The notes under the pieces: model-generated
What the model was told of the DNA's origin: nothing
What the model saw: the letters and a program-made list of their open reading frames with translations, nothing else
Database searches by the model: none
In this document: in pieces, positions 39,614 to 63,889 of the stretch
Numbering within the stretch: the first letter of the stretch is position 1
Layout of the letters: each line of letters opens with the position of its first letter
Made by a program: the position numbers and the translations under genes
Origin: a virus
Taxonomy: Duplodnaviria > Caudoviricetes
Direction: 5' to 3' (one strand)
DNA length: 64,000 nucleotides
IMG/VR virus record: IMGVR_UViG_3300021400_000885
Coordinates: 39,910 to 103,909 of that record

Positions 39614-40357
39614 TTAAATATTGTTAAATTTAACATTAAGAGTAGTACTCTTTGCTTTTTCTAAATCAATACCTGGATTTCTTGGATTGTTTATTATCCT
39701 ATGTTGTATTATAGTAATTGGCAGTTCATACTTCTCAGTTTCTGAGTTATAAGTAATACCAGCAACATCTGCAATATTTCCTGTAACTCTGATAGACATT
39801 CTTAGCCTTTTTACTTTGGCTACTTCAGGTGTAAAAGTCTCTTGGACAACACTTATATGTACTTTTTCAGAATCAGAGGTTTCTACTCTTGGTAGAATGA
39901 CAAATCGTTGGGTAATATCTGTATTCAACTCTTCGTATGAATATAGGTACACTGTAGATGTGCCATTTACCAGACTTCCTAAGTCTTTTTGCTCTATTCT
40001 TTTTAGATAGTAATCATATTCTCCTCTAAAAGGAATAGTGAAACTATCTCTGACAGTACTGCCCTCAGTATTAATGTATTCATACCAAATACGTAGTGCT
40101 TGGTTTTTTAAATCTTCTGAGGATTCCCAAAGTATGTCTTTTATTGGTTTATAAGTAATTGTTACCTTAGTTCCAAATTGACCCTCATTAGTAAAAGTAT
40201 TCACAAGAAAGTTTTCTTTATTTGAGTATACTTTTACTATGTTTAATTTAGTTTTTACACCATTGTCTTCTACATTACTAAAAATTGTAAATGCAGTAGA
40301 CCCCCCAGTGTTTGAAAGGTAAGCGTCTGTTAGTTTTGTTGAAAATTCGTAAACCAT
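39614..40357 (-). CDS. Hypothetical beta-rich (Ig/BACON-like) protein
   Basis: Beta-strand pattern; paralogous to its neighbour. Confidence 0.55.
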   Translation of the reverse strand: MVYEFSTKLTDAYLSNTGGSTAFTIFSNVEDNGVKTKLNIVKVYSNKENFLVNTFTNEGQFGTKVTITYKPIKDILWESSEDLKNQALRIWYEYINTEGSTVRDSFTIPFRGEYDYYLKRIEQKDLGSLVNGTSTVYLYSYEELNTDITQRFVILPRVETSDSEKVHISVVQETFTPEVAKVKRLRMSIRVTGNIADVAGITYNSETEKYELPITIIQHRIINNPRNPGIDLEKAKSTTLNVKFNNI

Positions 40358-47813: not shown

Positions 47814-49352
47814 TTACTGAAGAATGGAAGGAATAAGGGATACCATTCTAGTAGGGTCAAATACAATAGCTGCAAGAGTGGTCATTCTATGAACAGTGCA
47901 GGAATCCTCATCATGAGACATATTCATGTTGGAAATTTGTCCAGTGAAAGGATTTCTGAAGCCCCACTCATAACCCCAGAACTCTGGTTTGCCCTTAAGA
48001 GCAGCCTTCTGGATATTAGGTTGGTCTTGCTCACCAATGTACCAAATATCAAATCTGTAAGAGAAAGCAACACCACCTTCCGGATGGTAAATCTTATTTC
48101 TTACCTTGTCATCATAGAAGCTGTCAACATCAAGCTTTACAAATACACCATTAGGAGCCTGCCACTCAGTAATCTGATGGTCAGTGAGTCTAACAGCATT
48201 GTTTGGAGCAAATGCAGCAGTTGTCTTGGTAATTGCAGGAGGATTGCCCTCAGAGTATTGCAGACCAAGAGGAAGCCAACCAGAACCAAGTGCTTGAGCA
48301 GCTCTATTGAAAAGTAAAGCACCACGCTCACCAGTCTTGATGATGAATTTACGGTTTCCATAAGCAATCTTGCCTTCAGAAAGCTCATAAAGGGCATCAA
48401 GAATGTAAGTCATGATGCTGGAGGTATCATTGTAATAAACAACATTACCAGCCTCAGCCTGCTCAAAGATACCAGAACCCATTCTGATAACATTACCAGA
48501 CTTACCAAAGTTCAGATACTCACCATTAGCATTTCTGTTAGAACGACCAAATGCAAGAGCCCTGTTCTTATAACCAGCCCATTCAAGAGCAAGCTGCCAG
48601 TCAACATAGTGCATCCACATATTGTCAACAGACCTGATTTGCTCACCATTCTTGCCTTCCCTAACCATAGGAATACCAAAGGCAAGTTTCTTGTCATACA
48701 TCTTACCAGGAACCTTATGTTGGATACGCAGAGTTGTCCACTCACCACGCATACTAACTGGAGCAGTGAATCTGATGTCACCAACCTTACGGGAAAGTTC
48801 AGTCTCTACAGGAGCAAAGTCAACGGAGAATCTTTCACCATTGAGGAGTCTTCCTGCAGGAACACCCTGAGTATTGCCACCACAAAGCTCTACCTTATAT
48901 ACATAGTTGGTTCCTTCCATCTGAGGGTCTCCAAGGATGCGGAATTGGTATTTCTCATTAAGATTACCAACGATGATTTCACCATCAGCAAACCAAGCTT
49001 CACCAAATACAAGATAGAAAGGAGCTGTACCAGCACCAACATTATCAGCATCATCTTCAACAACAACTAAACCATTCTCATCTCTTGCCTCAACAAGAGG
49101 AATGTTTCTACTTGCAGAAGCAATGACATTCCAGAAGAACTCATCATCAGATTCAAATTCTCTGGTTGGGAACTGAGCAAGGAAAGACTCAAGAGTATTT
49201 CCCATATTGTAAGCTTGCAGTTGGACTATAACATCTGAAGCCTTCTGAGGTTCTTTCTGAAAAAGAGCACCAAGATGGTTTTCAGTTGTCATGCCAGCCC
49301 AGCCCTGAAAGCTTCTCATTTGATACTTGTTTAAAGTAATTTTGCCTGCCAT
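47814..49352 (-). CDS. Major capsid protein
   Basis: ENHLGA.FQ, RNIPLVEARDENG, ELSRKVGD.RF, GFRNPFTG, DPTR..SLIP, matching the crAss001-type MCP as recalled. Confidence 0.93.
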   Translation of the reverse strand: MAGKITLNKYQMRSFQGWAGMTTENHLGALFQKEPQKASDVIVQLQAYNMGNTLESFLAQFPTREFESDDEFFWNVIASASRNIPLVEARDENGLVVVEDDADNVGAGTAPFYLVFGEAWFADGEIIVGNLNEKYQFRILGDPQMEGTNYVYKVELCGGNTQGVPAGRLLNGERFSVDFAPVETELSRKVGDIRFTAPVSMRGEWTTLRIQHKVPGKMYDKKLAFGIPMVREGKNGEQIRSVDNMWMHYVDWQLALEWAGYKNRALAFGRSNRNANGEYLNFGKSGNVIRMGSGIFEQAEAGNVVYYNDTSSIMTYILDALYELSEGKIAYGNRKFIIKTGERGALLFNRAAQALGSGWLPLGLQYSEGNPPAITKTTAAFAPNNAVRLTDHQITEWQAPNGVFVKLDVDSFYDDKVRNKIYHPEGGVAFSYRFDIWYIGEQDQPNIQKAALKGKPEFWGYEWGFRNPFTGQISNMNMSHDEDSCTVHRMTTLAAIVFDPTRMVSLIPSILQ

Positions 49353-49375: not shown

Positions 49376-50536
49376 TTAAATGTCAAGTCTTTTCCTTCCT
49401 TTGGAATAGGTTTCTTCTTCATCATCACCTTCCGCAAAACGGAAACTACCACCTTGGTGTTGATTGCCAAATACAGCCTTTTCAATATTTTGAAGATTTG
49501 TCTTGACCTTCTTATTTACACTTTTATTTAAAATGTTTCCCATGTTTTTAAATCCATCAGTCATAGCATACATAAGACCAAGTACAGACCTAAACTCTAT
49601 GGGATGCTCATCTGCATATAATTGAACTGCTGTAAGTTGCTCTCCATCATTTGTTGTTTTGACTACTTTAGTCATTGCATCAAATGCTTTTTGTCTTGTG
49701 ACTCTATCAATAGGAATGTCACCAAATAAGGTATTCTGTTCAAGCATTGACTTCTTAAAGTCCTTTGCTTCCTGTTCAACCCTTTCCTTTTCAGCCTTTG
49801 CAGCTTCTTTATTCTTCTGAATTTCTTCATCATACTTTGTCTTGAAGAAATCTTTTACTGATTCAAGAGCATCTTTAGCATCCTCAATATCAGTTCCAGA
49901 AGCTACAATTCTTTCAACTTGTTTTTCAGCACGTGCTGCTGAAAATCCCCTGTTCAGAAAGTCCTGCTTAATAATTACCTTACGTAAGTTCTCTCCTTGA
50001 GGAGTCTCCGCTTCAATACTTTCATCTGTAATGCCTTCAAGATTTGAGATTGTCTTCTCATACTGAGAAATAACATTTGGCTCAACTCCAGCATTCAAAG
50101 CATCATTTACTCTTCTTTGAACATCATCAAGTCTTGCATTAATCTCATTCTCAAAAGCTTCAGAAAAAGATTCAGCATCTTTTACCTTACTAACAGTTTC
50201 TTCATCAAGGAATTGAAAGAGGCCATCACCTTGTAGAGCTTGGGCAAAGGAAGTATAAAGGTTTGAGCCTTTGGGAGAAGAACCAGTTTCTTTAGGTTTA
50301 GCCTCTTCCTCAAATTCCTCTTTATTATCCCCTACGCTCTCTGGTTCCTCATCATCATTGCCAAATAAATCAGCAGCATCTACAGGTCCCTCAGGAATAT
50401 TGTTCTCTTTAGTTTCATTCTCTTGTTGTTCAGAATCTTGATTGGAAGTTTCAAGTTCCTCATCATTTCCAAACAACTGTTCTGCACTAACATCTCCATT
50501 AAAGATGTTACTTTCAGTAAATAAATTATCGTTCAT
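49376..50536 (-). CDS. Putative capsid scaffolding/assembly protein
   Basis: Acidic N-terminus plus coiled coil, immediately upstream of MCP. Confidence 0.65.
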   Translation of the reverse strand: MNDNLFTESNIFNGDVSAEQLFGNDEELETSNQDSEQQENETKENNIPEGPVDAADLFGNDDEEPESVGDNKEEFEEEAKPKETGSSPKGSNLYTSFAQALQGDGLFQFLDEETVSKVKDAESFSEAFENEINARLDDVQRRVNDALNAGVEPNVISQYEKTISNLEGITDESIEAETPQGENLRKVIIKQDFLNRGFSAARAEKQVERIVASGTDIEDAKDALESVKDFFKTKYDEEIQKNKEAAKAEKERVEQEAKDFKKSMLEQNTLFGDIPIDRVTRQKAFDAMTKVVKTTNDGEQLTAVQLYADEHPIEFRSVLGLMYAMTDGFKNMGNILNKSVNKKVKTNLQNIEKAVFGNQHQGGSFRFAEGDDEEETYSKGRKRLDI

Positions 50537-50563: not shown

Positions 50564-50600
50564 CAAAAATAACGGGTTTATAAAAATTTTACAAACCCGT
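50564..50600 (-). promoter_or_regulatory. Promoter TTTG-N20-TATTTTTG overlapped by an inverted repeat (terminator or operator)
   Basis: -7 at 50564-50571, -33 at 50592-50595; ACGGGTTT...AAACCCGT repeat at 50572-50600. Confidence 0.65.
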
Positions 50601-50628: not shown

Positions 50629-51042
50629 TTAAAGCTTTTCTCTGCAATGTTCACATAGAAAGTGCTTTGCAACTTTGAATACTTGTTGACCAATCATTCC
50701 ATTCAAATACTGAAACTCTTCACTGAAAGGTTCTATATTTTCAGCAATACAAATATGCATAGCTAAATGTCCTTTCTCATGGTCAATTGTATCTTGGAAT
50801 TCCTCTGGAGTTTTTGTTGGTCCAATGATAATAATACTCATCTTCCTATTAATATTACTGTATATATAGCCAGTATCATACTTAAATTCTGATAACTTGT
50901 CCATCTCTTCCTCAACATCTTCTTCTGGGCATCCAAGAGCAAGCAAATCTTTAGCAATATCATCTAAAGGGTAGAAGGATATTGCATAGTATATCCTTAC
51001 AAACCAACCATATTTATCCAAAGTAAATTCCTGCATTATCAT
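50629..51042 (-). CDS. Putative HExxH zinc metallopeptidase
   Basis: TIDHEKGHL followed by downstream EEFQY; ATGA overlap with the upstream gene. Confidence 0.6.
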   Translation of the reverse strand: MIMQEFTLDKYGWFVRIYYAISFYPLDDIAKDLLALGCPEEDVEEEMDKLSEFKYDTGYIYSNINRKMSIIIIGPTKTPEEFQDTIDHEKGHLAMHICIAENIEPFSEEFQYLNGMIGQQVFKVAKHFLCEHCREKL

Positions 51043-51449
51043 AGCATATCTTCCCAAATAATAGGCATACCTTTACCTATACAATCTGCATAAAATCTTG
51101 TAAAAGCTTGACCATCATAACCATCTGGGTCTTCAAGAGAATCCTTAACAAACATAATCAGTTCAGCTTCTCCTCTTACAGCCTTGCCAAGGTAATCAGC
51201 TTTACACATATTTGCCAAATAAACATCATCATACCCATTAACATCCTCAATGGTAGTACCATATTTCTTCAAGAGAGCTGTAAAAGATTCTTTTGTATAA
51301 GGGTCAATGGGTCTTTTCATTCCATTGATTGTCTTATACATCTTACTTGCAGCCCATTCAGACATCTTCTTTGAAAAATGCCATCCATACATAGAAAGAT
51401 ATTTCATCATATCTTCTGAGTATCCTTCATAAGAATCAAGTCTTGCCAT
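51039..51449 (-). CDS. Conserved hypothetical protein
   Basis: YGWHFSKKM, YLANMCKAD, DPDGYDG, I.WEDML motifs recognised from Bacteroidota phages. Confidence 0.7.
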   Translation of the reverse strand: MARLDSYEGYSEDMMKYLSMYGWHFSKKMSEWAASKMYKTINGMKRPIDPYTKESFTALLKKYGTTIEDVNGYDDVYLANMCKADYLGKAVRGEAELIMFVKDSLEDPDGYDGQAFTRFYADCIGKGMPIIWEDML

Positions 51450-51460
51450 ACCTTAATATA

Positions 51461-51485
51461 TTAAAGGGGTGAGTTTCCTCACCCC
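51461..51485 (-). terminator. Hairpin/terminator inside the module
   Basis: GGGGTGAG-gaaa-CTCACCCC-TTTAA on the - strand. Confidence 0.7.
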
Positions 51486-51491
51486 AAATGA

Positions 51492-51683
51492 TTATTCAAG
51501 TTCTTTAAGGTGCTCTTCAAGAATGTCCATTGCAGCACAAAAGCCATCCTTTACTCCATCTTCATAGGAATTTTCTTTTCTGCCAGACATTTTTCTGCCA
51601 GACATTCCCTTGTAGTTGGACTTTTCATCTTCATATCTTGAGCCTTCTTTACGCTCCTCAATAATTTTCCAAACTCTATTCAT
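51492..51683 (-). CDS. Small charged protein with an MSGRK tandem duplication
   Basis: 63-aa ORF; 15-bp direct repeat TTTTCTGCCAGACAT x2. Confidence 0.6.
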   Translation of the reverse strand: MNRVWKIIEERKEGSRYEDEKSNYKGMSGRKMSGRKENSYEDGVKDGFCAAMDILEEHLKELE

Positions 51684-52194
51684 TTGTTCTAGTATTTTTA
51701 GACATTAATGCATCAACCAGTTGACCCAATTGGCTTGAAAGAACATCTACCTTAGATTTAAGTTCGTCCATTTCTTTTCTTTGTGATTGTTTATCAGCAA
51801 ATTCTGGGTTAAGTTGAGTAAGTATTTCATCACATTCAGCAATTCTCTTTTGATTAAAGTCTCTGCTATTTATGATATCAATGCTTTTCTGTTTGATACT
51901 TAATACTTCTGAGTTCATTGCTTCTCTGCTTGTAGAAACAACAATGTTCTCACCATCAATATATGAATCAACAATATCAAGCTGTGAAGGTAACTCCTTA
52001 AGGTTCAATGTTGCATTTCCAACCCTTACAGTAAGGTCTACAACAGTTTCTTGTGGTTGCCCAAAAGTTGTTGGCATTGTATATTTAGGTCTTGGTACGG
52101 GCTGATTAGTCACCTGACCAATATTAAGTATCATTTTTTCTCCTCCCTTGTGGAGAATATAAATCTGATTATTGGGTCTAACTGATTGAAACAT
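51676..52194 (-). CDS. Conserved hypothetical protein with C-terminal coiled coil
   Basis: MFQS.R....YILHK, VVDLTV, LNPEFA motifs. Confidence 0.7.
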   Translation of the reverse strand: MFQSVRPNNQIYILHKGGEKMILNIGQVTNQPVPRPKYTMPTTFGQPQETVVDLTVRVGNATLNLKELPSQLDIVDSYIDGENIVVSTSREAMNSEVLSIKQKSIDIINSRDFNQKRIAECDEILTQLNPEFADKQSQRKEMDELKSKVDVLSSQLGQLVDALMSKNTRTNE

Positions 52195-52204
52195 AATGTA
52201 TTAA

Positions 52205-52534
52205 TTAAAGTACTTGTAAAATATTGTCTATCCTGTCATAGAAAACAAGGAATACACCTGGATTAGGTAAGTCTGCAACAGTGGCATTAGCACCACCTGC
52301 AAGGGTAACATTAAGGGTATTGCCAGCCATATTAAATCTAACTGGAAGAGTTGTTGTAGTTCCTTCAGGCAAGTCTACAAGGTATACAAGCAGTACTCCA
52401 CTGAAAGGATTTCTATCCCAATCAGGATTAAATCCATAATCAACAGTGTCTGTATTTACAGTAACTCTTCTGGATTTTATTCTGGGAATCCCATTAATGT
52501 TAGAATACTGTTGAGGGAATTTCGCCATAATCAA
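52205..52534 (-). CDS. Conserved hypothetical beta-rich protein
   Basis: 109 aa; GTTTTLPV motif; preceded by AGGAGG. Confidence 0.7.
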   Translation of the reverse strand: MIMAKFPQQYSNINGIPRIKSRRVTVNTDTVDYGFNPDWDRNPFSGVLLVYLVDLPEGTTTTLPVRFNMAGNTLNVTLAGGANATVADLPNPGVFLVFYDRIDNILQVL

Positions 52535-52562
52535 TCCTCCTAATTAATTGATTATCAACAAA

Positions 52563-53480
52563 TTACCCCCAATATGAATTGCCTCCCCAACCATAACCAT
52601 AGGGGTTAAAGCCAGCACCATAAAAACCACCAGCGTAAGGAGTGTTATTTACTGCAGTAACATTAGGATAAATCACTGGAATAGTGTTGGGTTGCTTATT
52701 TGCAATTTCATTAACTTTGGCTTGCAGAGGAGCAATTACACCATAAAGCTGATTGGTCTGTCTGTCATTGTCAATTTGCCCACGCAGCTGGGTAATAAGT
52801 TCACTTTGACGGTTGATTTCAGATTGCATATCTCTCTTTTCAGCTTGGCAGAACTGGTCAATCATTGTTGTCTTTAAGTCAGCAATTGCATCAACAGTTC
52901 TTTGACCACTACCAGTAACTGCACTTGTTAAAGCCTCAGTTTGCTGCATATTCTGGATTCTTGATTCATACCCTTGCTGAGTTGTCAAGAGTCTATTCTC
53001 ACAACAGCACTCACAGAGTTGTCTGCCTAAAGTAGCATCACCACTTTGGATAGAGTTAATAATCTGAGGAACACTTACTGCCTGTTGAAGAGCCAGAGTG
53101 GAGAGAGCACTTTGAAGAGTCTGAACTGCACCATTGACAAGATTAAAGTCCTGACCAACCATAGTGGCAAGATTCTGAGTAGCAGCTCTGGAAGCTTCAC
53201 CTTGAGAAGTAATTGCATTCATAAGAAGCTCTCTACCAGAGTCATTGTTGATTTGATTAGAGAGGAAACCTGCACCATTTCCTCCGCCAAAGCCACCAAA
53301 ATTACCAAAACCTCCCCAGCCATTGCCAAAGAGAAGACCAAGGAAAAAGCCAAGAATACCTCCACCCCAGCCATTGCCTCCAAAGAGACCATTGTTATTG
53401 TTCATAAGGGCAGCCCAAGCAGGAATTGAAGCATTGTCACCATTCCCAAAAAAGTAAGTCTTAGAGGATTCACCTTCCAT
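52563..53480 (-). CDS. Gly/Asn-rich membrane-anchored coiled-coil protein with a CECCC motif
   Basis: GGNGWGGGILGFFLGLLFGNGWGG hydrophobic segment, heptads, LCECCCENR, aromatic/Gly tail. Confidence 0.75.
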   Translation of the reverse strand: MEGESSKTYFFGNGDNASIPAWAALMNNNNGLFGGNGWGGGILGFFLGLLFGNGWGGFGNFGGFGGGNGAGFLSNQINNDSGRELLMNAITSQGEASRAATQNLATMVGQDFNLVNGAVQTLQSALSTLALQQAVSVPQIINSIQSGDATLGRQLCECCCENRLLTTQQGYESRIQNMQQTEALTSAVTGSGQRTVDAIADLKTTMIDQFCQAEKRDMQSEINRQSELITQLRGQIDNDRQTNQLYGVIAPLQAKVNEIANKQPNTIPVIYPNVTAVNNTPYAGGFYGAGFNPYGYGWGGNSYWG

Positions 53481-53519
53481 AATAAAAAAAAAATAAATTA
53501 AGTGTTATACAAAATGGTA

Positions 53520-53542
53520 TGTTAGCTAACACTACAAAGGTA
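53520..53542 (-). promoter_or_regulatory. -7 element TACCTTTG with an adjacent 12-bp palindrome TGTTAGCTAACA
   Basis: -7 at 53535-53542; palindrome at 53520-53531. Confidence 0.6.
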
Positions 53543-53581
53543 AGGTGGACTCTTCAAGGGAAAGAATGATGCCAGAAAAAC

Positions 53582-53610
53582 AAAAAATCCACAGTATAAT
53601 ACTGTGGATT
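53582..53610 (-). terminator. Intrinsic terminator after the HTH gene
   Basis: AATCCACAGTA-tta-TACTGTGGATT-TTTT on the - strand. Confidence 0.8.
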
Positions 53611-53638
53611 AATAACTTAGCAAATAAGATAATGCCAA

Positions 53639-53938
53639 CTATTTGTCTTTTATAGTCTTAATGTACTGCTTGATATCTTTAACAGACCATTGTAACTCCT
53701 TAAATCCTTCAACTTTCTTTCCCCTTGGAAGCTTGCCTTCTCTAACAAGACTGTCAAACTTAGACCTGCTTATATTTAAATATGTATAAGCTTGATATTT
53801 ACTTATGTATTTCTCTCTAAAGTTATACCTCTTTAGAGCATCAACAACTTCAAACATTTCTTTTTCAGAAAGTTCTGAGTTTCCAGCATCAATATCATCA
53901 ACTATTTTAAGCAGTAGTTTCTTAATTACTTGCAACAT
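53639..53938 (-). CDS. AlpA/excisionase-like HTH DNA-binding protein
   Basis: SKYQAYTYLNISRSKFDSLVREGKLPRG...W. Confidence 0.75.
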   Translation of the reverse strand: MLQVIKKLLLKIVDDIDAGNSELSEKEMFEVVDALKRYNFREKYISKYQAYTYLNISRSKFDSLVREGKLPRGKKVEGFKELQWSVKDIKQYIKTIKDK

Positions 53939-54357
53939 AATTTCTCTTTTCTATAAAAGTAAAGTATTAAGAAAGCAAATACACCAAGAGTAATACTAAA
54001 TACACAGCATAGACCCATAAAGCTTGCAGGTATTCCTATGGTAAACTCTATAGTACTTATTATATTATTTACTACAATATAATGTAGAAACATTCTGTGG
54101 TATATACAGAATTTAAATACATAAGAGACTAAATAAAGAAAGGCTAAAGTCAAAAAAGAGATGCCACCAATAAAAGATATTACTGGGGCATCTACACCAC
54201 ATAAGTCAAGTAGAGTATGAAGGGCATCACAAAAAGCAAGTAACATTGGTATTACTTTAAGCAATTCCAATGTTACTTTATATAGTTTCTTGTCAACAGA
54301 GTTTCCCACCCTTACACAGTCTTTTACCTCTTGCAGATAATCCTGCTCTTGGCACAT
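53926..54357 (-). CDS. Multi-pass membrane protein (start uncertain)
   Basis: 3-4 hydrophobic segments; FKFCIYHRMFLHY motif. Confidence 0.7.
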   Translation of the reverse strand: MCQEQDYLQEVKDCVRVGNSVDKKLYKVTLELLKVIPMLLAFCDALHTLLDLCGVDAPVISFIGGISFLTLAFLYLVSYVFKFCIYHRMFLHYIVVNNIISTIEFTIGIPASFMGLCCVFSITLGVFAFLILYFYRKEKLCCK

Positions 54358-54433
54358 TTGGAGTTACCCTTCCTTTTTGTTTAGTGCCTCCAGAAGCTTT
54401 CTTATTACTCTTAGTTGTCTTCTTTGTAGCCAT
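54293..54433 (-). CDS. Small basic peptide (46 aa, not in ORF track)
   Basis: MATKKTTKSNKKASGGTKQKGRVTPNVPRAGLSARGKRLCKGGKLC, directly after a -7 element. Confidence 0.65.
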   Translation of the reverse strand: MATKKTTKSNKKASGGTKQKGRVTPNVPRAGLSARGKRLCKGGKLC

Positions 54434-54436
54434 ATG

Positions 54437-54444
54437 CAAATATA
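54437..54444 (-). promoter_or_regulatory. -7 element TATATTTG, 3 nt before the ATG
   Basis: TATATTTGCATATG on the - strand. Confidence 0.6.
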
Positions 54445-55042: not shown

Positions 55043-55537
55043 TTACCATGCTGGTCCTCTTAATACTACTATTTCATTAATAAGCTTGGCGGAAGGATAG
55101 TTGGCTTCTTTAGCTGAAAGTATTGCCTGATACTGTATATCATCAGCGTATAGCACTATTATTTTATCTTCACCGGCTCTAATTATGATTTTGTGTCCAG
55201 AAGAGTCTCCTAATGTCTCTATTGAAACTCCATTCTTTTTAGCACGCTCTAAATTTCCATCAATACGTTCTTTTCCTTCGTCATTAAGAGTATCATATAT
55301 CGTAATACCCCCGTATCGCCAAAATTCTTTAGGAGCATTTAAAACAGTTTTAACTAAAGTATCAGCCTTTTCTCTGAAGTAAGTCGCCCCTTTAGGCAAA
55401 GTCATGAATCTATCAGCGTTCAGCCCTTTAGCTTTAGCTTTAAATAACTTTTTCCCTAATACTGGAGGGCCAAAGTGTTTCTCCTGTTCTCTTTGTACAG
55501 GAATTTGTCCACCTGGATTTACTACTGTTGATGACAT
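55043..55537 (-). CDS. Hypothetical virion-surface protein with a KL.KAK...F.TLP motif
   Basis: KKLFKAKAKGLNADRFMTLPK. Confidence 0.55.
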   Translation of the reverse strand: MSSTVVNPGGQIPVQREQEKHFGPPVLGKKLFKAKAKGLNADRFMTLPKGATYFREKADTLVKTVLNAPKEFWRYGGITIYDTLNDEGKERIDGNLERAKKNGVSIETLGDSSGHKIIIRAGEDKIIVLYADDIQYQAILSAKEANYPSAKLINEIVVLRGPAW

Positions 55538-55607: not shown

Positions 55608-56105
55608 TTATCTAATAGTATCAGTATTAGATTGCAAAACTCCTGATAAAGTATGTTCTTTTTCTTCATCAATTGTTAAAAGCCATCCTACATATCCACT
55701 AGAGGAATGTTTATAATATTTTGGATAACACGTATAATATTTATAAACATTATTACTATCTTCAAATCTTCCTATAAAGCAGACTTTAGTTTCACCCTTT
55801 TGGTCAAATAGGTATGGATATAACCCACTATTCTCTAAAGTTGTATTATGCTCAGAGCCCTCATCCCAGTCATTAGAATTAAATCTTACATTACCATTAC
55901 TGTATAAAGTGTGTGTAATTTGAGGCCCGACGCTACCAAATGTAATAGTATCAGTATCAATATAATAATCAGCCTCTGGAAGAGTTAAATCTGTCTCACC
56001 TCTATCCTCTCCTTCTCCATCATTAACTTTAGCATTTCTTGGCAAAGTAATGAATGGTTCTCCCCCAGTAAACCTATTCTTAGATTTTGCTTTAATGAGT
56101 TTCAT
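55608..56105 (-). CDS. Hypothetical virion-surface protein with a KLIKAK...PFITLP motif
   Basis: MKLIKAKSKNRFTGGEPFITLPRN. Confidence 0.6.
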   Translation of the reverse strand: MKLIKAKSKNRFTGGEPFITLPRNAKVNDGEGEDRGETDLTLPEADYYIDTDTITFGSVGPQITHTLYSNGNVRFNSNDWDEGSEHNTTLENSGLYPYLFDQKGETKVCFIGRFEDSNNVYKYYTCYPKYYKHSSSGYVGWLLTIDEEKEHTLSGVLQSNTDTIR

Positions 56106-56384: not shown

Positions 56385-57857
56385 CTAATCATTTGGTATA
56401 TTTCCTTTTTCATCAAGTTCATATATTTTAGATGCATATTGAGTCCAATTAGTTGCAGTCTTATATGCATTTAGAATACCATGGTCTGAAGAGTAGGGTA
56501 CATAGATTTTTTCAAGAGATACACAGTTCCCAAAAATAGTAGTACCTGCTGTTGGGGGAGTAGTTGATTGAAAAATAATTGATTTTAGGGAAGAACAATA
56601 ATTAAAGCAGTTTGTCCCTATAGAAGTTAAAGTACTAGTAAAGTGCAAATGTTGTAAGCTTAAGCACTCATAAAAAGCACTAGTACCTAAAGTCTTAATG
56701 GTATCTGGAATGGTAACTTCTTCGAGAGAAGTACAGGTATTAAAACAATAATTTGGAATACTTGTGATAGTTCCATTTATAAAAATGCGCCTGCATTTAC
56801 GTAAATCACTAAATGCATGCTGGTTTAAAGTAGCACACTGACCAGCAACTATTAAAGAGTCGAGACCTCTGGCGTACCTAAAACAGTAACTCCCTAATTT
56901 TGTTCCAGCACTTTTTGGTAAACATAGTGCCTTCAATTGTAGCGTGTCAGTAAATGCTTGATCGTTTATCACTGTAATACCTTCTGGAATTACGATACCT
57001 GTTAAAGTGTAAGTTGCTTGAAAAGCACAAGTAGTAATACTCTTTTCTAAGTTTGTGTAATCTTCTTTTGGAATACTTATTTCTTTAACTTTATGTCCCC
57101 AACGAACTAAAGATGTGGTGGTTATCTGAGTGTTGCTACTAAAGTATAACGCCTCTAGAGTAACTATTTTACAACGTGCATTAGTATAAGAATATCCAAA
57201 AACACCATTATATGAATTACCGTTACCTACAGTATATAAAACATTGGTTGCTGTAACTTTAATGCAGTAATTCCCATGTGCATTTGAATAAAGATGCCAA
57301 CTAGAAATATTGGTAAATCCTGTATTAATCCCTGTAGTAATTTCAGTAGTATTGCCGTCTCCCCAATCAATTAGAATACTATACACAGAGTTTGTTCTTT
57401 TTGCTCTGAAGAATACAGGAATTGAGTAATCTTCCCCTTCTAAGGCATCAAGTGTAAAATATATTTCTGTTTTATCACTTTCTGTTTTATAATGAGCACC
57501 AATATTTAAACAATCACAAGTGTTTTCTATAAAATCTTGAGCATCAGTTAATTCCCAATTCCATCCATCAGCAACTAATCCAGTATGTGATGGTTGACTT
57601 GGATGAGCAGATAAAGCAAGAAATTCTTGTGGAGTGTATACATAAAGCAAATCACCATTATAATCATAATAGTTTACTCCATGTATAGTAGGCTTTAATG
57701 GTGTATCAATATAATTTTGGAATTTAATTGCTCTAACTGCATCAGGATAAACCTTAAATCCATCTGTAATAACTACTGGTACACCTTTATTTACTATGCT
57801 TTGTCGAATGTCCTCTACTGTGTTTTGTAGAGATGCTATTTTATTGTGAATACTCAT
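56385..57857 (-). CDS. BspA-type leucine-rich repeat protein (putative receptor-binding)
   Basis: IPEGITVI..AF, IPDTIKTLG.SAF..C.SL repeats; IDWGDG; TTPPT cap. Confidence 0.8.
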   Translation of the reverse strand: MSIHNKIASLQNTVEDIRQSIVNKGVPVVITDGFKVYPDAVRAIKFQNYIDTPLKPTIHGVNYYDYNGDLLYVYTPQEFLALSAHPSQPSHTGLVADGWNWELTDAQDFIENTCDCLNIGAHYKTESDKTEIYFTLDALEGEDYSIPVFFRAKRTNSVYSILIDWGDGNTTEITTGINTGFTNISSWHLYSNAHGNYCIKVTATNVLYTVGNGNSYNGVFGYSYTNARCKIVTLEALYFSSNTQITTTSLVRWGHKVKEISIPKEDYTNLEKSITTCAFQATYTLTGIVIPEGITVINDQAFTDTLQLKALCLPKSAGTKLGSYCFRYARGLDSLIVAGQCATLNQHAFSDLRKCRRIFINGTITSIPNYCFNTCTSLEEVTIPDTIKTLGTSAFYECLSLQHLHFTSTLTSIGTNCFNYCSSLKSIIFQSTTPPTAGTTIFGNCVSLEKIYVPYSSDHGILNAYKTATNWTQYASKIYELDEKGNIPND

Positions 57858-60055
57858 TACTCCCAGTCCTCCTCAGGTATAGTCCCATCAGGATTAAGTT
57901 CTGTAATAGGGCAATTAAAAGTTAAATAGTATCCCCATGATGTTGTAGCATCTGAGTCTAGATATGCTTGTAGTATAGAGTGGTCTTCTGAGTAAGGGAC
58001 ATAAAAATGCCCCATTCTCCCTCCTATAGACCTATAGTCAGCCCCAGAATTAGTAACATATGCTCCATGAAAAGCATTTACATTACCCAGTGTTGGTGGG
58101 GTAGTTGCTCTTACAATAATTCTTCTAATATTAAAACAATAGTTAAATGATTGAGAACCAATTGAAGTAATTGTTGAAGGTAAATCAATTTCAAATAAGC
58201 TATAACCACCAATAACACAATTTTGAGGAATAGTTGTAGTACCTTCTGGAAATTTTATATATTGCAGAGAAGGGAGGTCTCTAAGACTATCACTATATGT
58301 TGTTACATTCTGCAAATTTATTCGCTGTAATACTTCACAAGCACCAATTCCTATACTTGGAATAGATGTAAGGTTTCTTGATATGTATATATACTTTAAA
58401 CTTCTTAAGTATTCAAAACTGTATGCTCCAAATGAATTACAGGAATCTGGTATTAATATACTTGCAGCTCTACAGGCATTAAACCCATAAGTTCCACAAA
58501 ACGCTGAAGACCAAGTTGTGGATGTACATATATAATCTAATGCAAAAGTACTTCTACAAGCACTGTCTCTAACTATTATAGGTCTTTCTGGATTTCTTGG
58601 AAAAATAATACATTTAAGGTCATAGCACAAGTAAAGACAGCCTCCTCCAAATGTAGTTACATTCTTTGGGATACTTATAGTTTTCAAATTTGTAAAATAC
58701 CGAAAAGCACATGGAGAAATTCCAGTTAGTCCTTTTCCAAGTTCAACTTTAAAGCATTCCTGCATTAGTTTCCAAGCATCGCTGGTATTATAGTATGCCC
58801 CAAACACAGTACTATCAGTATAAGTATACCAAGCGTAGGTATCACCTCTACCAGTTAATTGAAATGTGCAATCTTCGTCTGGCAGAAGAGATATTACATA
58901 ATTTCCGATAGTACTATAGGTATGAGTTACTGTCTTAGTTCCAGTCCCAGTAAATCTTTCAGATGTGCCGTCTCCCCAACTAATAAGTACTCCATTTGCC
59001 TTCCCTTGGTAAAATACAAGAGCTTGGTCTAAATAATCAGGATTATCTTTATGTATATAGTATCTAGTAGCACCATCATTAGTAATATACATCTGCCCAA
59101 CATCAATCCTTTCTGCTCTTGTTAAATAATCAAGTATTTCTTCTCTAGTCCAATTCCATCCTTGAGCAATCAATCCACTATGCCAAGGATTTCTTGGTAA
59201 CCCTTCCATAGCTTGAAACTCTGATGCAGTATAAGCATAGAGCAGAGTTCCATCATAATCAATAAAATTAACTGCTTTAGGTTCTGTTGGTAAGGTATAA
59301 TTTGATGTATCTATATTATCAATAGCATTAGCATACTCCACAAGGCCATCAGAATAAACTAATTCTTCTGTACCATAATGTTCATTTATGGCACTTCTAA
59401 GGTCTTCTTTAATGTAATTTACTTCAATAGCTTTTTCTGCAATAGCTGTTAATGTAATAGTTTTTACTGGACCAGCTGTAAACACTACATCATTAGCACT
59501 TGTAAAGAAGCCCTTTGACACTCTGTCATATAATCCTACAACACTGTCAGGATTAATGCATGGAATGAAATGTCTTAATGTAACACCATTATCAATAAAC
59601 TTTAATGAATACAGCTTATAGTGTCCAAATTCTTCGACAGTTCCGGCGGTGTTATTGCAGAACAAGTATATTTCTTGAAAGTGAGAAGCGTTCCTTGTTA
59701 CTGTTTCAGTAAATTCTCCGTTTTGATATGTGTTGCCAAATAAAGAACACTTTATCTTTGTATCTTTAACTATGTGTGGATTTTTTGCAGAAGTTCCAGT
59801 CTTTAATTCCCCTCCAGCAGTTGTACGATAAGTCCCAAGTAAAAAAGCATTTGCTTTTGTATACCTCGCCCCAAAAATAACACCAAAGGCATTTGTTGTT
59901 GACGAAGTATTTACGTAGTCATGAGTCTCAAATTCTATAGTAAACCCTATTGTATTAGATGCATTAATCCCAGTCTTAATATAACCAGAATTACCTAATG
60001 GCTGCTCTATATATTCAAGTTGAGTATATCCCTCTGGTACAAGCTTAATCTCCAT
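57857..60055 (-). CDS. BspA-type LRR protein with an extra N-terminal beta domain
   Basis: PEGYTQLEYIE...FIPC...GLYD.V domain; LPSTITSIG..SF..C repeats; ISWGDG. Confidence 0.8.
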   Translation of the reverse strand: MEIKLVPEGYTQLEYIEQPLGNSGYIKTGINASNTIGFTIEFETHDYVNTSSTTNAFGVIFGARYTKANAFLLGTYRTTAGGELKTGTSAKNPHIVKDTKIKCSLFGNTYQNGEFTETVTRNASHFQEIYLFCNNTAGTVEEFGHYKLYSLKFIDNGVTLRHFIPCINPDSVVGLYDRVSKGFFTSANDVVFTAGPVKTITLTAIAEKAIEVNYIKEDLRSAINEHYGTEELVYSDGLVEYANAIDNIDTSNYTLPTEPKAVNFIDYDGTLLYAYTASEFQAMEGLPRNPWHSGLIAQGWNWTREEILDYLTRAERIDVGQMYITNDGATRYYIHKDNPDYLDQALVFYQGKANGVLISWGDGTSERFTGTGTKTVTHTYSTIGNYVISLLPDEDCTFQLTGRGDTYAWYTYTDSTVFGAYYNTSDAWKLMQECFKVELGKGLTGISPCAFRYFTNLKTISIPKNVTTFGGGCLYLCYDLKCIIFPRNPERPIIVRDSACRSTFALDYICTSTTWSSAFCGTYGFNACRAASILIPDSCNSFGAYSFEYLRSLKYIYISRNLTSIPSIGIGACEVLQRINLQNVTTYSDSLRDLPSLQYIKFPEGTTTIPQNCVIGGYSLFEIDLPSTITSIGSQSFNYCFNIRRIIVRATTPPTLGNVNAFHGAYVTNSGADYRSIGGRMGHFYVPYSEDHSILQAYLDSDATTSWGYYLTFNCPITELNPDGTIPEEDWE

Positions 60056-60057
60056 AA

Positions 60058-61434
60058 TTATACAGTACTTGAACCATTTATAATAGCATCTAATGCAGTT
60101 TCAATATCACCAACAACATCATACATACACTTAGCTGATGGGTACTGAGTATCAGTTGATGCTGAAGATATTGCAGTTACTTTATTACTAACATGTTCAA
60201 CATCATCAAGGGATGAAGGAAGATATTGCTCACTAATTTTACCAGAACCATCTAAAGGAGCAACACCACTTGCAGCTCCCTTTTGTGTAATAGGGATTGC
60301 ATTATTAGCTGCTGTAAGGGAATCTTGTACACTTTGAGCAAGGTCAGTTGAAGGTATTCCTGTTGAGGGTTTACTATATTTAGCATTCCATGTAGTCTTT
60401 TCAGTATCAGTAACTAATCTATGAGTAGAGTCACCTGAAAGAGAAGATAGTGATGTTGGAATATCTGGCTTATTACTTAAATCATTATAATTACCAGTAG
60501 TTGCTACTGTAGCTAAATCAGCAGAATTTGCTTTGTCACTAATATCTTGATGAGCGGTTATTACATTACCAAGGTCTACTATATCAGATGTACCTTTGAT
60601 TACTCCATTCATCTTAATACCAGTGATAGTACCAACATTTGATGTAAAGTTACTATCATTAGTAAGGTCACTTACCTTAGTTGGTATGGATGATTTAGTA
60701 GCAAATGTATTATCTGATTCAGTCTTTGTATAGTAATTACTTGCATTGAATATGTCAGTAATTGGTATGGAAATGTTTTGCTTTCCAGCATCAGTATTGA
60801 ATGATATAACAAGACTACCATTAGTAACACTGACATTCTCAATCATACCATCCTTAACAAAGTCAGTAGTATCTACATAGAAAAGGTTGGTATTACTTGA
60901 GTTCTTAAAGTAAATCTTTTTATCATTCTTTACATATTGAGCACTTGCAACAAGCCCTGCTAAAGATTGATGCTCAGTAATTACTGTACCAAGGTCAATA
61001 TCTCCATTAGTGCCTTTGGATTGACCATTCATTGATATACCAGTAATAGTTCCTATATTACTGGTAAATCCTGAATCATTATTAAGTTGTGATATTTTTG
61101 TTGGAACAGAGATGTTTACTGACTTATTAGTGATTGCCTGAGTAGCATTATTAACTTTGATACTCTCAATCACATTAACTTGAGCACCACTTGAGATTTC
61201 ACCCAATTTAGATTTATCTGTATCAGTGTAATCATTGGTGGATAATCCTTTATTACCATCCTTCTGTACATAAGTAGACTCAGCATCTGAAGATTTCAGA
61301 TACTGAGTTATATTAAGTGCAGAGATTGCACTGTCTATGAGTCCTTTGATTCTTTGTAGGAGTTTTGTAGTATAGTATCCTAACCCAGAATCATTCAGAC
61401 CTTTTTCATCTCTAACTACCGCCATTTGATTCAA
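60058..61434 (-). CDS. Tail/head fibre protein with internal repeats
   Basis: KGLSTNDYT, GAQVNVIE, 2x PTK.S.L.NDS.FTSN.GTITGI.MNG...DLG.VIT.HQ, GVAPLD..GK. Confidence 0.75.
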   Translation of the reverse strand: MNQMAVVRDEKGLNDSGLGYYTTKLLQRIKGLIDSAISALNITQYLKSSDAESTYVQKDGNKGLSTNDYTDTDKSKLGEISSGAQVNVIESIKVNNATQAITNKSVNISVPTKISQLNNDSGFTSNIGTITGISMNGQSKGTNGDIDLGTVITEHQSLAGLVASAQYVKNDKKIYFKNSSNTNLFYVDTTDFVKDGMIENVSVTNGSLVISFNTDAGKQNISIPITDIFNASNYYTKTESDNTFATKSSIPTKVSDLTNDSNFTSNVGTITGIKMNGVIKGTSDIVDLGNVITAHQDISDKANSADLATVATTGNYNDLSNKPDIPTSLSSLSGDSTHRLVTDTEKTTWNAKYSKPSTGIPSTDLAQSVQDSLTAANNAIPITQKGAASGVAPLDGSGKISEQYLPSSLDDVEHVSNKVTAISSASTDTQYPSAKCMYDVVGDIETALDAIINGSSTV

Positions 61435-62530: not shown

Positions 62531-63052
62531 TTATCTTATTATATCAACTTTAAAGGATTGCTCAAAAGTCCCTCCTTCAGACAGACTCATAAGATTTGGA
62601 TCTCTAAAGTTTAAAAATAACTTTATAGTGAAAGTTTGTCCTACTATTTGCGCATCCAAGTGTCTTTCTGTAACATCAACCCATGCACTGGTAGCATTAA
62701 AAACATCGTCTCCCAACTTTATGCTTGAAATTGGAAAATCCATATATCCATCATTAGCCACAAGCTCTTCTTCAGTAATTCCAAAAGCTGTACGTAATGT
62801 TTGGTAAATTTCATAGTAAGAAGCAAGTCCAATTTCTTCTGGACGCAACTCATAGCGACATAACTGTACTCCAGGAATTGGCATTGGATTGTAACTAGGC
62901 TTATTACCAGTAGTAAAAGCCATGAATGCACCCATGCTATTACCACCTATAAGAATATCTGATGGCTTTATCACTGGAAGTGTTGTAGGGTCATCACCAC
63001 TTACATCACAAATATCTTCCTTTAATCTGTAATTACTTAAATCTATAATCAT
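62531..63052 (-). CDS. Hypothetical protein
   Basis: 173-aa ORF with a 4-nt overlap with the upstream gene. Confidence 0.6.
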   Translation of the reverse strand: MIIDLSNYRLKEDICDVSGDDPTTLPVIKPSDILIGGNSMGAFMAFTTGNKPSYNPMPIPGVQLCRYELRPEEIGLASYYEIYQTLRTAFGITEEELVANDGYMDFPISSIKLGDDVFNATSAWVDVTERHLDAQIVGQTFTIKLFLNFRDPNLMSLSEGGTFEQSFKVDIIR

Positions 63053-63456
63053 AATTTCACTCTTAATTTGGTTTTAACAAAAATAACAATTCCACCTAAT
63101 ATAGCCAAACAGGATAGTATTTTACCTAATCTAATCCACAAGGATTGCCAGAATGAAAGTTTCTTTTCAACTTCCTTAATAACTTCCTTCTCAACCTCTT
63201 TTATCCTATCCTTGTAGAGAGTATCAGTCTTATATTTATACTTATACTTATCTTTATAGATAGTTTCTGTTATATATACAGTATCACCTTTTTCTTTAAT
63301 AATTCTATCTCTAAATACATTGATACTGTCGTGTATATATTCTGTATTATTCTTATAGATATAAGTAGTATCTCTTTGTGCTACTTGTGGAATGTTTTTA
63401 TGCACTCCACAAGCAGTACAAAAGATACAAAGCAGTATTAAAGAAAGTTTTTTCAT
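63049..63456 (-). CDS. Lipoprotein with C-terminal TM helix; putative unimolecular spanin
   Basis: MKKLSLILLCIFCTA-C lipobox, DT/DS-rich beta region, C-terminal ILSCLAILGGIVIFV-KTK. Confidence 0.6.
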   Translation of the reverse strand: MKKLSLILLCIFCTACGVHKNIPQVAQRDTTYIYKNNTEYIHDSINVFRDRIIKEKGDTVYITETIYKDKYKYKYKTDTLYKDRIKEVEKEVIKEVEKKLSFWQSLWIRLGKILSCLAILGGIVIFVKTKLRVKL

Positions 63457-63457
63457 T

Positions 63458-63889
63458 CTAATCTGTATAAAATACATGAATCACTTTTACAAGTATATCA
63501 AAATCGTCATTTAATATGCACACTGGAAAAAATCCAAAACGACATCCCCAACTATCATCAGTGGCTCTCCAAGTTATGTTTGCAGTAGTTAATGGAGTAG
63601 GACTACCCTGCTTAGTAAGTACACCTCTCGTCCATACACCCCAATCCATTCTATAAAAAGCATCTACGTTTCCTTCTGGTGGAGGAGTCTCACTGTTTAT
63701 TACAGGTAACTCATCAACATTAATAATAGTTTCTTCTTCTTCATAAATTGTTGCAAGATAACTTGCAACCTCATTTATATTCATAGATGAAGAAGAGTCT
63801 TGACTTTCACCAAGTGAAGTATTCTTAGGCAAGGTAATGTAGGGGGAGCCTCCAAACCTTTTAGTTGTTTTTGCTTTAATTAATTTCAT
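63458..63889 (-). CDS. Hypothetical virion-surface protein with a KLIKAK...PYITLP motif
   Basis: MKLIKAKTTKRFGGSPYITLPKN. Confidence 0.6.
   Translation of the reverse strand: MKLIKAKTTKRFGGSPYITLPKNTSLGESQDSSSSMNINEVASYLATIYEEEETIINVDELPVINSETPPPEGNVDAFYRMDWGVWTRGVLTKQGSPTPLTTANITWRATDDSWGCRFGFFPVCILNDDFDILVKVIHVFYTD

Follow-up and report, generated by a model that had tools for sequence, protein, structure and literature searches.

The DNA analyzed here is a stretch of 64,000 nucleotides (hereafter the window) from the IMG/VR virus record IMGVR_UViG_3300021400_000885 (Caudoviricetes; positions 39,910 to 103,909 of the record, which is one contig of 103.9 kb). Its subject is a cassette of nine minus-strand open reading frames (ORFs), g1 to g9, which is preceded by tail-fibre-like genes (56385-61434) and followed by the genes for the scaffold (49376-50536) and the major capsid protein (MCP; 47814-49352). 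The cassette is a conserved, separately punctuated late gene set in two parts, a front unit formed by g1-g3 and a core formed by g4-g9. A first-pass annotation of the window had described a self-contained module of nine genes; the nine ORFs, the two terminators, the inner hairpin and the palindrome were all found where it had placed them, but the conserved core includes only the six genes g4-g9. The six core proteins all fall outside the families to which a role has been assigned. Among the four functions weighed below, a membrane-associated, cross-linkable coiled-coil assembly that acts on the envelope when infection ends and assists lysis or egress was ranked first, and it is put forward tentatively.

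The MCP, scaffold, portal and TerL proteins share 42-65% identity with those of the Bacteroides phages crAss001 and DAC15 (Steigviridae). No other viruses are as abundant in the human gut as the crAss-like phages. The sole crassvirus with a solved virion, crAss001, does not have the cassette, which has thus escaped study. It could represent an unrecognized late function in egress, assembly or cell organization in phages of Gram-negative hosts.

Conservation and distribution of the cassette

The scan of IMG/VR with g4 produced 48 loci and the scan of prokaryote assemblies with g8 produced 16 more contigs, and in the IMG/VR loci the gene order was read by tblastn and ORF-level blastp. The order g4-g5-g6-(g7)-g8-g9, all on one strand, was present in about 40 of the 48 loci, the remainder being mostly truncated, and it was kept in all 16 contigs, including those of the isolates of Parabacteroides segnis and P. 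leei; many of the loci come from related lineages, and the counts are hence not independent. The co-conservation of g4-g9 is far beyond chance, and the genes occur together as an ordered unit in many genomes, in accordance with the module of the first-pass annotation.

The cassette was found in several crAss families and also in non-crAss phages of Bacteroidales. In cr272_1 (Suoliviridae) it is followed by a gp16-like gene and the genes for endolysin, TerL and portal, while cr52_1, cr1_1 and cr10_1 have the rearranged order g8-g4-g5-g6. Also the 151-kb phage csAssE-Sib carries the cassette, and a reduced version is present in PD691P6 and BF486P2 (40-53 kb phages of Parabacteroides and B. fragilis), where the g4-like gene was recognized by eye and g6 and g8 by profile. 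Among 1.84 billion representatives, the profile of DUF7841, the family of g8, detected 926 clusters with E values of 1e-3 or better. The profile search of crAss001 (100 of 102.7 kb) gave no cassette matches at E below 1, and the cassette was not found in the 25 kb around the MCP gene of DAC15. The genomic position varying among the phage groups, together with the absence from crAss001 and from the surroundings of the DAC15 MCP gene, is consistent with a patchy, mobile distribution. Both this patchiness and the recurrence of the cluster with the Cys-triplet (CCC) protein in unrelated phages had been anticipated in the first-pass annotation.

Of the front-unit genes, g2 and g3 were found ahead of g4 in 17 loci, and g1 was found there in seven. 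The loci devoid of g1-g3 hold in the same positions another basic peptide, a multi-transmembrane protein homologous to g2 and a helix-turn-helix (HTH)-like protein of about 100 amino acids (aa). The last of these, not detectably homologous to g3, replaces it in 14 loci (L004, L007, L011, L013, L014, L016, L017, L019, L020, L032, L034, L038, L042 and L048), in which the adjoining transmembrane (TM) protein is still homologous. A divergent second family of basic peptides occupies the position of g1 in six other loci, and g2 aligned with the divergent multi-TM family of other loci at an hhalign probability of 85.8% (E 5.4e-6, 111 columns). The slots of the front unit being refilled in this way, the nine-gene architecture is conserved more widely than sequence similarity suggests.

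In the recoding phages the cassette genes contain in-frame stops, with TAG in cr52_1 (L053) and split profile matches in L072 and L073. As late genes carry recoded stops in such phages (reviewed in PMC10136315), these stops assign the cassette to the recoded late gene set. The g4-g9 cassette is thus a member of the late gene block.

Patchy distribution and varying genomic position would also suit a mobile cargo operon placed at the end of the late transcript and serving superinfection exclusion, defence or counter-defence, or host takeover. Such a conflict module would agree with the presence of an own promoter, an operator-like palindrome and a nearby HTH gene, and with the P. segnis cassette, which is the 3'-terminal part of the late operon and adjoins convergent replication genes. 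Small PolyVal-type zincins, furthermore, are reportedly common in conflict systems. However, PADLOC gave no match better than E 1e-3 (the best, E 0.0014 to 0.012, covering only coiled-coil stretches), and late timing would be unusual for counter-defence. The core trio is also conserved group-wide: the g8 homologue, the only one counted there, occurs in four phage records of Parabacteroides and five of B. fragilis, and T5.077, the g4 homologue of phage T5, recurs in 223 phage records, nearly all of them T5-like. Conservation across whole phage groups is expected of a life-cycle function more than of variable cargo, and a conflict module is considered improbable. No specific support was obtained for superinfection exclusion or host-surface modification, both suggested by the first-pass annotation, the cassette being a late gene set often neighbouring lysis genes.

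The lead protein g4 and the proteins encoded with it

The lead protein g4 has a Gly-rich head, a GxxxG-type hydrophobic segment (about residues 40-60) and a coiled-coil rod, with the Cys triplet embedded in the motif CECCCE. Its C-terminal part has a Pro-rich stretch, which is conserved, and a tail rich in Gly, Tyr and Trp, or in some homologues in Gly and Cys. In the family alignment G31, G34, F51, G56, G57 and C158-C160 were invariant. The position of the hydrophobic segment was conserved among 46 homologues (median residue 40, median 17-residue hydropathy 1.56). The protein matched phrog_16490 (E 3e-34), a family the function of which is unannotated, and the Pfam scan of all members of the g4 alignment produced only sub-threshold matches. 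In the ESM Atlas the g4 model had a predicted local distance difference test (pLDDT) score of 0.58, and both g4 and g5 fell there only into viral clusters devoid of names.

The g4 family was connected by hhalign with T5.077 (321 aa; probabilities 96.7%, E 4.4e-10, and 96.4%, E 1.4e-9, 107 columns), which on this basis is a g4-like protein. The aligned block covered the Gly-rich hydrophobic head and the first helices; outside it, T5.077 has by eye an E-C-C-C-E motif like that of g4. The homology extends the g4 family beyond the phages of Bacteroidota. T5.077 heads a three-gene operon, T5.077-T5.079, with its own annotated promoter (P12) and terminator, in which T5.078 is a low-complexity protein rich in Gln, Met and Pro, and T5.079 is a 64-aa peptide with nine cysteines (L077 9052-9672). 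No homologues of g5, g6, g8 or g9 were detected in the T5 operon, and the literature search on T5.077 found no publication.

Some g4 homologues are labelled as viral fiber, spike or glycoprotein in public records, and these labels are one of the arguments for regarding g4-g6 as fibres, decorations or assembly factors of the virion, comparable in role to gp21 or gp29 of crAss001, with g8 and g9 as a maturation pair. Also the location agrees with a virion accessory, as the cassette is surrounded by structural genes, with those for fibres on one side and those for scaffold and MCP on the other. The equivalent slot of crAss001 contains gp29, which codes for a head fibre, and the present genome has no homologue of gp21 or gp29. 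The authors of the crAss001 study considered that uncharacterized proteins may serve as head fibres in other crassviruses (PMC10172136). Furthermore, g5 is beta-rich and g6 combines a barrel with a coiled coil. The labels, however, appear to rest only on coiled-coil similarity. When the g4 profile was compared with the PDB sequences, the best matches were chains of influenza HA2, and at E 0.1 and 15 bits they were not significant; this similarity probably explains the spike and glycoprotein labels. Like a class I fusion protein, g4 has a Gly-rich hydrophobic peptide (G-N-G-W-G-G) followed by a long coiled coil, but the resemblance to HA2 is one of composition only.

The profile searches against PDB with g4, g5, g6, g8 and g9 otherwise gave only coiled-coil noise and no virion chains of crAss001, in line with the earlier statement that none of the genes is a recognized crAss virion component. 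The interpretation of g5 as a gp29-type head fibre was rejected, the hhalign probability being below 1%. The phages carrying the cassette differ greatly in size and gene content (40-53 kb phages, crAss-like phages of about 100 kb and phages of 150 kb), and it would be unusual for fibres to have a hydrophobic head of the glycine-zipper type and to be accompanied by an RG-rich peptide, a regulator of their own and a zincin. A virion accessory is regarded as unlikely and was ranked second.

The layout of head, rod and tail also resembles that of keratins, and g4 might form intermediate-filament-like structures in the cytoplasm, co-assembling with g7 into a scaffold, gel or condensate that organizes late infection. 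The invariant Cys triplet and the Gly/Tyr/Trp- or Gly/Cys-rich tails of the homologues are compatible with this, as is the nature of g7. In nearly every related locus its slot is occupied by an ORF of 60-100 aa with 35-58% charged residues, rich in R, G, Y, D and E, and with RGG/RGY-like tracts; many of these ORFs end in R-D-S-R-G-R-Y/F, and in PD691P6, cr52_1 and cr1_1 g7 is fused to the DUF7841 domain. The filling of the slot by ORFs of like composition indicates that g7 is a real, fast-evolving gene. A filament would further be consistent with the T5 operon, which joins a g4 homologue to a Q-rich low-complexity protein and a Cys-rich peptide, and with g5-g9, in which no TM segment, signal peptide or export signal was detected. 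The strong conservation of G31, G34, F51, G56 and G57, however, suggests that the Gly-rich head has a defined structure and is not a generic low-complexity domain. In many homologues the g4 segment is clearly hydrophobic and of TM length, and disulfide cross-links are unlikely in the reducing cytoplasm. A cytoplasmic filament or condensate was ranked third and the conflict module fourth, both with equally little probability.

The remaining core proteins gave few indications of function. For g5 no sequence relative was found in PDB, and its ESM Atlas entry starts at residue 3. The AlphaFold2 (AF2) model of g6 (pLDDT 79.5), a protein matching phrog_28898 at E 2e-45, has an N-terminal six-strand SH3/KOW-like barrel and three helices, the last being a long coiled-coil helix. 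Its best fold match with VIA-align was domain I of EF-P (Z 6.1, root mean square deviation 2.3 A over 60 residues), which reflects a generic barrel. The membership of g8 in DUF7841 was clear (95.5 bits, E 3e-27, the cut-off being 25.2), and its AF2 model (pLDDT 91.2) was alpha-helical with one beta hairpin, the BFVD fold matches being exclusively other DUF7841 proteins. Foldseek against PDB gave for g6 and g8 no matches at E 1e-3 or better. The possibility of g8 as an active CE-clan protease was rejected; the fold score to Ulp1-type proteases was weak (Z 4.0) and there are no conserved Cys or His residues. The search for longer proteins with a fused DUF7841 produced a single, uninformative match of 282 aa (E 4e-6).

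In g9 the residues H93, E94, H97 and E113 were invariant among 25 sequences, the last Glu being 20 residues past HExxH, and the C-terminus has a CxxC motif. With HExxH and E113 as the putative third metal ligand, g9 has the features of a zincin metallopeptidase. Like the minimal zincins (ImmA/IrrE M78, SprT-like, MPTase-PolyVal) it is small and combines HExxH with a downstream Glu, but all its Pfam matches were sub-threshold: Peptidase_M78 was matched by the protein of the window at E 0.094 and by the best family member at E 0.0019 (3 of 25 members), and further matches were to SprT-like proteins (2 of 25 members) and DUF6782. The g9 homologue of C3_41T2LP is annotated as a PolyVal metallopeptidase.

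Among the front-unit proteins, g1 has the core R-V-x-P-N-V-P-R-A-G ... G-G-K/R with ten invariant positions in an alignment of eight sequences, and g2, which was found in 17 loci, has a conserved F-C-x-Y-H-R/K motif. With its 3-4 hydrophobic segments and a basic C-terminal end, g2 may be compared to a holin; it had no matches in Pfam, PHROG, PADLOC or NCBIfam, and the endolysin of the genome is located elsewhere. The match of g3 to HTH_17 was weak (E 0.0065, 17.2 bits against a cut-off of 27), as were those to TIGR01764 (E 0.027) and to the HTH and excisionase families of PHROG (E about 1e-3 to 8e-3); its 17 homologues share 15 invariant residues. The NCBIfam scan of the cassette proteins gave nothing significant, and no cassette gene matched a known structural or lysis family in Pfam, PHROG, NCBIfam or the PDB profile searches. 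Searches of the literature on DUF7841 and on lysis in Crassvirales and Bacteroides phages found nothing on the cassette genes.

Linkage to lysis genes and the possible function

The lysis-cassette hypothesis was prompted by crAss001, where the LysB-like gp27, the holin gp28 and the carboxypeptidase gp30 occupy the corresponding slot. Among the 64 loci, a reference lysis gene was located within 2.5 kb of the cassette in 17 and within 8 kb in 30, and this linkage is much more frequent than the size of the cassette would predict. In cr1_1 (L074 3689-8683) and cr10_1 (L075 3671-7866), both Suoliviridae, g8, g4, g5 and g6 are inserted between the genes for holin and a LysB-like protein and that for a YkuD-like endolysin. 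The same insertion also holds one fibre-like coiled-coil gene. In the P. segnis and P. leei contigs the genes for a holin and an M15 endolysin lie just 5' of g4-g9, and in P. segnis, where the cassette closes the late operon, a u-spanin-like gene is situated between them. In PD691P6 the g4-like, g6-like and g8-like genes are directly 5' of the genes for holin, endolysin and a LysB-like protein, and in BF486P2 the g4-like and g8-like genes are placed before the lysis genes in the same way.

An assembly acting on the envelope late in infection accounts best for what is seen in g4, for the place of the cassette in the recoded late gene set and for its frequent proximity to lysis genes, and it was therefore ranked first, as a tentative possibility. 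In such a system the front unit g1-g3 would end in its terminator and the palindrome-bearing promoter would then drive g4-g9, with the hairpin parting g4-g7, presumably made in bulk, from the translationally coupled g8 and g9, presumably made in smaller amounts. The lead protein g4 would anchor in, or insert into, the inner membrane by its glycine-zipper segment, oligomerize through the coiled coil and be cross-linkable by the invariant Cys triplet. The proteins g5 and g6 and the charged peptide g7 may join the g4 assembly, and the DUF7841 protein g8 and the mini-zincin g9 may regulate or process it. The role would be accessory to lysis or egress, and not that of a holin, endolysin or spanin.

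Several observations weigh against an envelope-acting assembly. Outside the cassette, the genome codes for a holin (phrog_199), for an endolysin (phrog_894, E 1e-13) and for a candidate u-spanin. The cassette is therefore something other than the core lysis set, and its interpretation as the holin, endolysin and spanin set of the genome was rejected. Together with the cytoplasmic character of g5-g9, which lack export signals and could not meet a periplasmic g4 rod, this complete lysis set elsewhere weakens the proposal. The g4 segment is only moderately hydrophobic and has no positively charged flanks, hydropathy of 1.6 or more being reached in only 18 of 46 homologues and the net charge of the N-flank being -2. 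None of the cassette proteins matched lysis families in Pfam, PHROG, PADLOC or NCBIfam. The lysis linkage is not universal, and the loci from which it was counted are not independent; in C3_41T2LP, a 74-kb phage of Bacteroides uniformis, the cassette is 3' of the RecT and resolvase genes. T5.077 lies at 38-39.7 kb of the 121.75-kb T5 genome, outside a late block and presumably in the early region, and its host is enterobacterial. Finally, gp29, a true head fibre, is encoded inside the lysis cluster of crAss001 (PMC10172136), and position alone is thus weak evidence.

The crAss001 genes gp27-gp30, coding for a LysB-like protein, a holin, the head fibre HFD and an L,D-carboxypeptidase, have the same place as the cassette, with fibre genes on one side and the scaffold and MCP genes on the other, and likewise mix lysis and non-lysis functions. 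They have no homologues in the present genome, and the cassette genes have none in crAss001.

Also the spanins (lambda Rz/Rz1, P2 LysB/LysC and T1 gp11) were compared with the cassette. An N-terminal hydrophobic segment, a coiled coil, cysteines and a Pro-rich C-terminal stretch, which are general features of i-spanins, are all seen in g4, and the cassette is often beside lysis genes. In contrast, g4 has double the size of Rz, and a LysB-like gene is present besides the cassette in many loci. No ORF with a signal peptide and lipobox, as expected of a lipoprotein partner, was found within or beside g4, and the Pfam, PHROG and NCBIfam hits of g4 included no spanin family.

The u-spanin candidate (63049-63477, minus strand, 142 aa), 9.6 kb 5' of g4, has a lipoprotein-type signal ending in C-T-A-C-G and a C-terminal TM segment, and no other lipoprotein with such a C-terminal segment was found. 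Homologues of it adjoin endolysins in L011 and L058. The lysis cluster of the genome, located just 3' of the portal gene and outside the window (L054 1334-2978, minus strand), codes for a holin-like protein of 184 aa and an endolysin of 154 aa, and also for two further small TM proteins of 106 and 133 aa, of which the 133-aa one has the motif H-E-W-G-H.

A broader proposal is that the coiled-coil rod of the g4/T5.077 type, membrane-inserting and Cys-cross-linked, is the main part of an undescribed phage machine, with dedicated partners and a processing zincin, and that the machine has the Gram-negative envelope as its target when infection ends. It could constitute a new class of egress or outer-membrane devices beside the spanins and disruptin, or alternatively a filament or gel built by the phage, and its conservation would extend from the crAss-like phages of the gut to coliphages of the T5 type; this remains doubtful. 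By the link to T5.077 the metagenomic puzzle becomes testable at the bench in T5 and E. coli, and cultured phages carrying all or part of the cassette include C3_41T2LP, PD691P6 and BF486P2.

Punctuation of the cassette and minor observations

The features of the cassette are listed in Table 1. The promoter and the clade-specific palindrome in front of g4, the hairpin between g7 and g8 and the ATGA overlap of g8 and g9 were conserved across clades, and together with the terminators they bear out the earlier suggestion that the cassette has its own punctuation.

Table 1. Genes and control elements of the cassette (window coordinates).
Feature	Start	End	Strand	Description	Remarks
Candidate front-unit promoter	54437	54444	-	Bacteroides-type -7 box TATATTTG	31-nt gap 5' of g1; called by position only
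g1	54293	54433	-	46-aa basic peptide from ATG at 54433	No Asp or Glu
g2	53926	54357	-	143 aa, 3-4 hydrophobic segments	Start overlaps g1; alternative start GTG 54309
g3	53639	53938	-	99 aa, helical N-terminus and excisionase/MerR-like HTH; candidate regulator	Weak profile matches
Intrinsic terminator of the g1-g3 unit	53586	53610	-	11-bp stem and T-run	
Candidate g4-g9 promoter	53520	53542	-	-7 box TACCTTTG (53535-53542), 3 nt, palindrome TGTTAGCTAACA (53520-53531)	
g4	52563	53480	-	305-aa lead protein	phrog_16490
g5	52205	52534	-	Beta-rich, about 107-109 aa	phrog_31654; conserved start ATG 52528
g6	51676	52194	-	172 aa, SH3/KOW-like barrel and coiled coil	phrog_28898
g7	51492	51683	-	63-aa charged peptide rich in R/G/Y/E/D, probably disordered	
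Hairpin	51466	51485	-	GC-rich, 8-bp stem, GAAA loop	16 nt 5' of g8
g8	51039	51449	-	136-aa DUF7841 protein	PF25223, phrog_38431
g9	50629	51057	-	Mini-zincin, about 137-142 aa, HEKGH	Likely start ATG 51042
Intrinsic terminator of the cassette	50572	50600	-	13-bp stem	Followed by -7 box (50564-50571) and scaffold gene

The -7 motif was not enriched in the window (77 observed against 83 expected), and the promoter calls are therefore based on position and on conservation across loci and not on motif statistics. Also the scan for sigma-70-type promoters (34 sites against 28 expected) was uninformative, as the phage is one of Bacteroides. In most related loci the motif TAnnTTTG is present 5' of g4 and is followed within 3-6 nt by a perfect palindrome of 10-16 bp. 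That of the window, TGTTAGCTAACA, is perfect over 12 bp and occurs in the window only once. The palindromes are clade-specific in sequence (GTTAGCTAAC, GTTGCGCAAC, GTAAGCTTAC, GTAACGTTAC and GTTGTACAAC) and have the common frame GT-N6-AC. By sequence and conservation, the palindrome looks like an operator across the expected transcription start of g4-g9. The autoregulation proposed in the first-pass annotation would have g3 bind the palindrome; the recognition region of g3 was nearly invariant among clades with different palindromes, and palindromes are also present in loci devoid of g3.

The hairpin between g7 and g8 corresponds to a strongly structured element in 32 of 43 loci (z below -2, median -3.1), with differing stem sequences. 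It lies so near g8 that no room is left for another promoter, and it probably serves as an attenuator or a stabilizer of the RNA end that fixes the ratio of g4-g7 to g8-g9. The start of the g9 family is a conserved Met, which in the window gives the ATGA overlap with the g8 stop, and g9 probably starts from the ATG at 51042.

A -7 box, TATTTTTG, located 28 nt 5' of the scaffold ATG, coincides with the T-run in which the cassette is terminated (50564-50600, minus strand), and the terminator and the following promoter may overlap. In the fibre region, three proteins (63458-63889, 55608-56105 and 55043-55537, minus strand) have unrelated C-termini and a common N-terminal motif, K-L-I/F-K-A-K ... 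R-F ... I/M-T-L-P-K/R, which looks like a docking tag.

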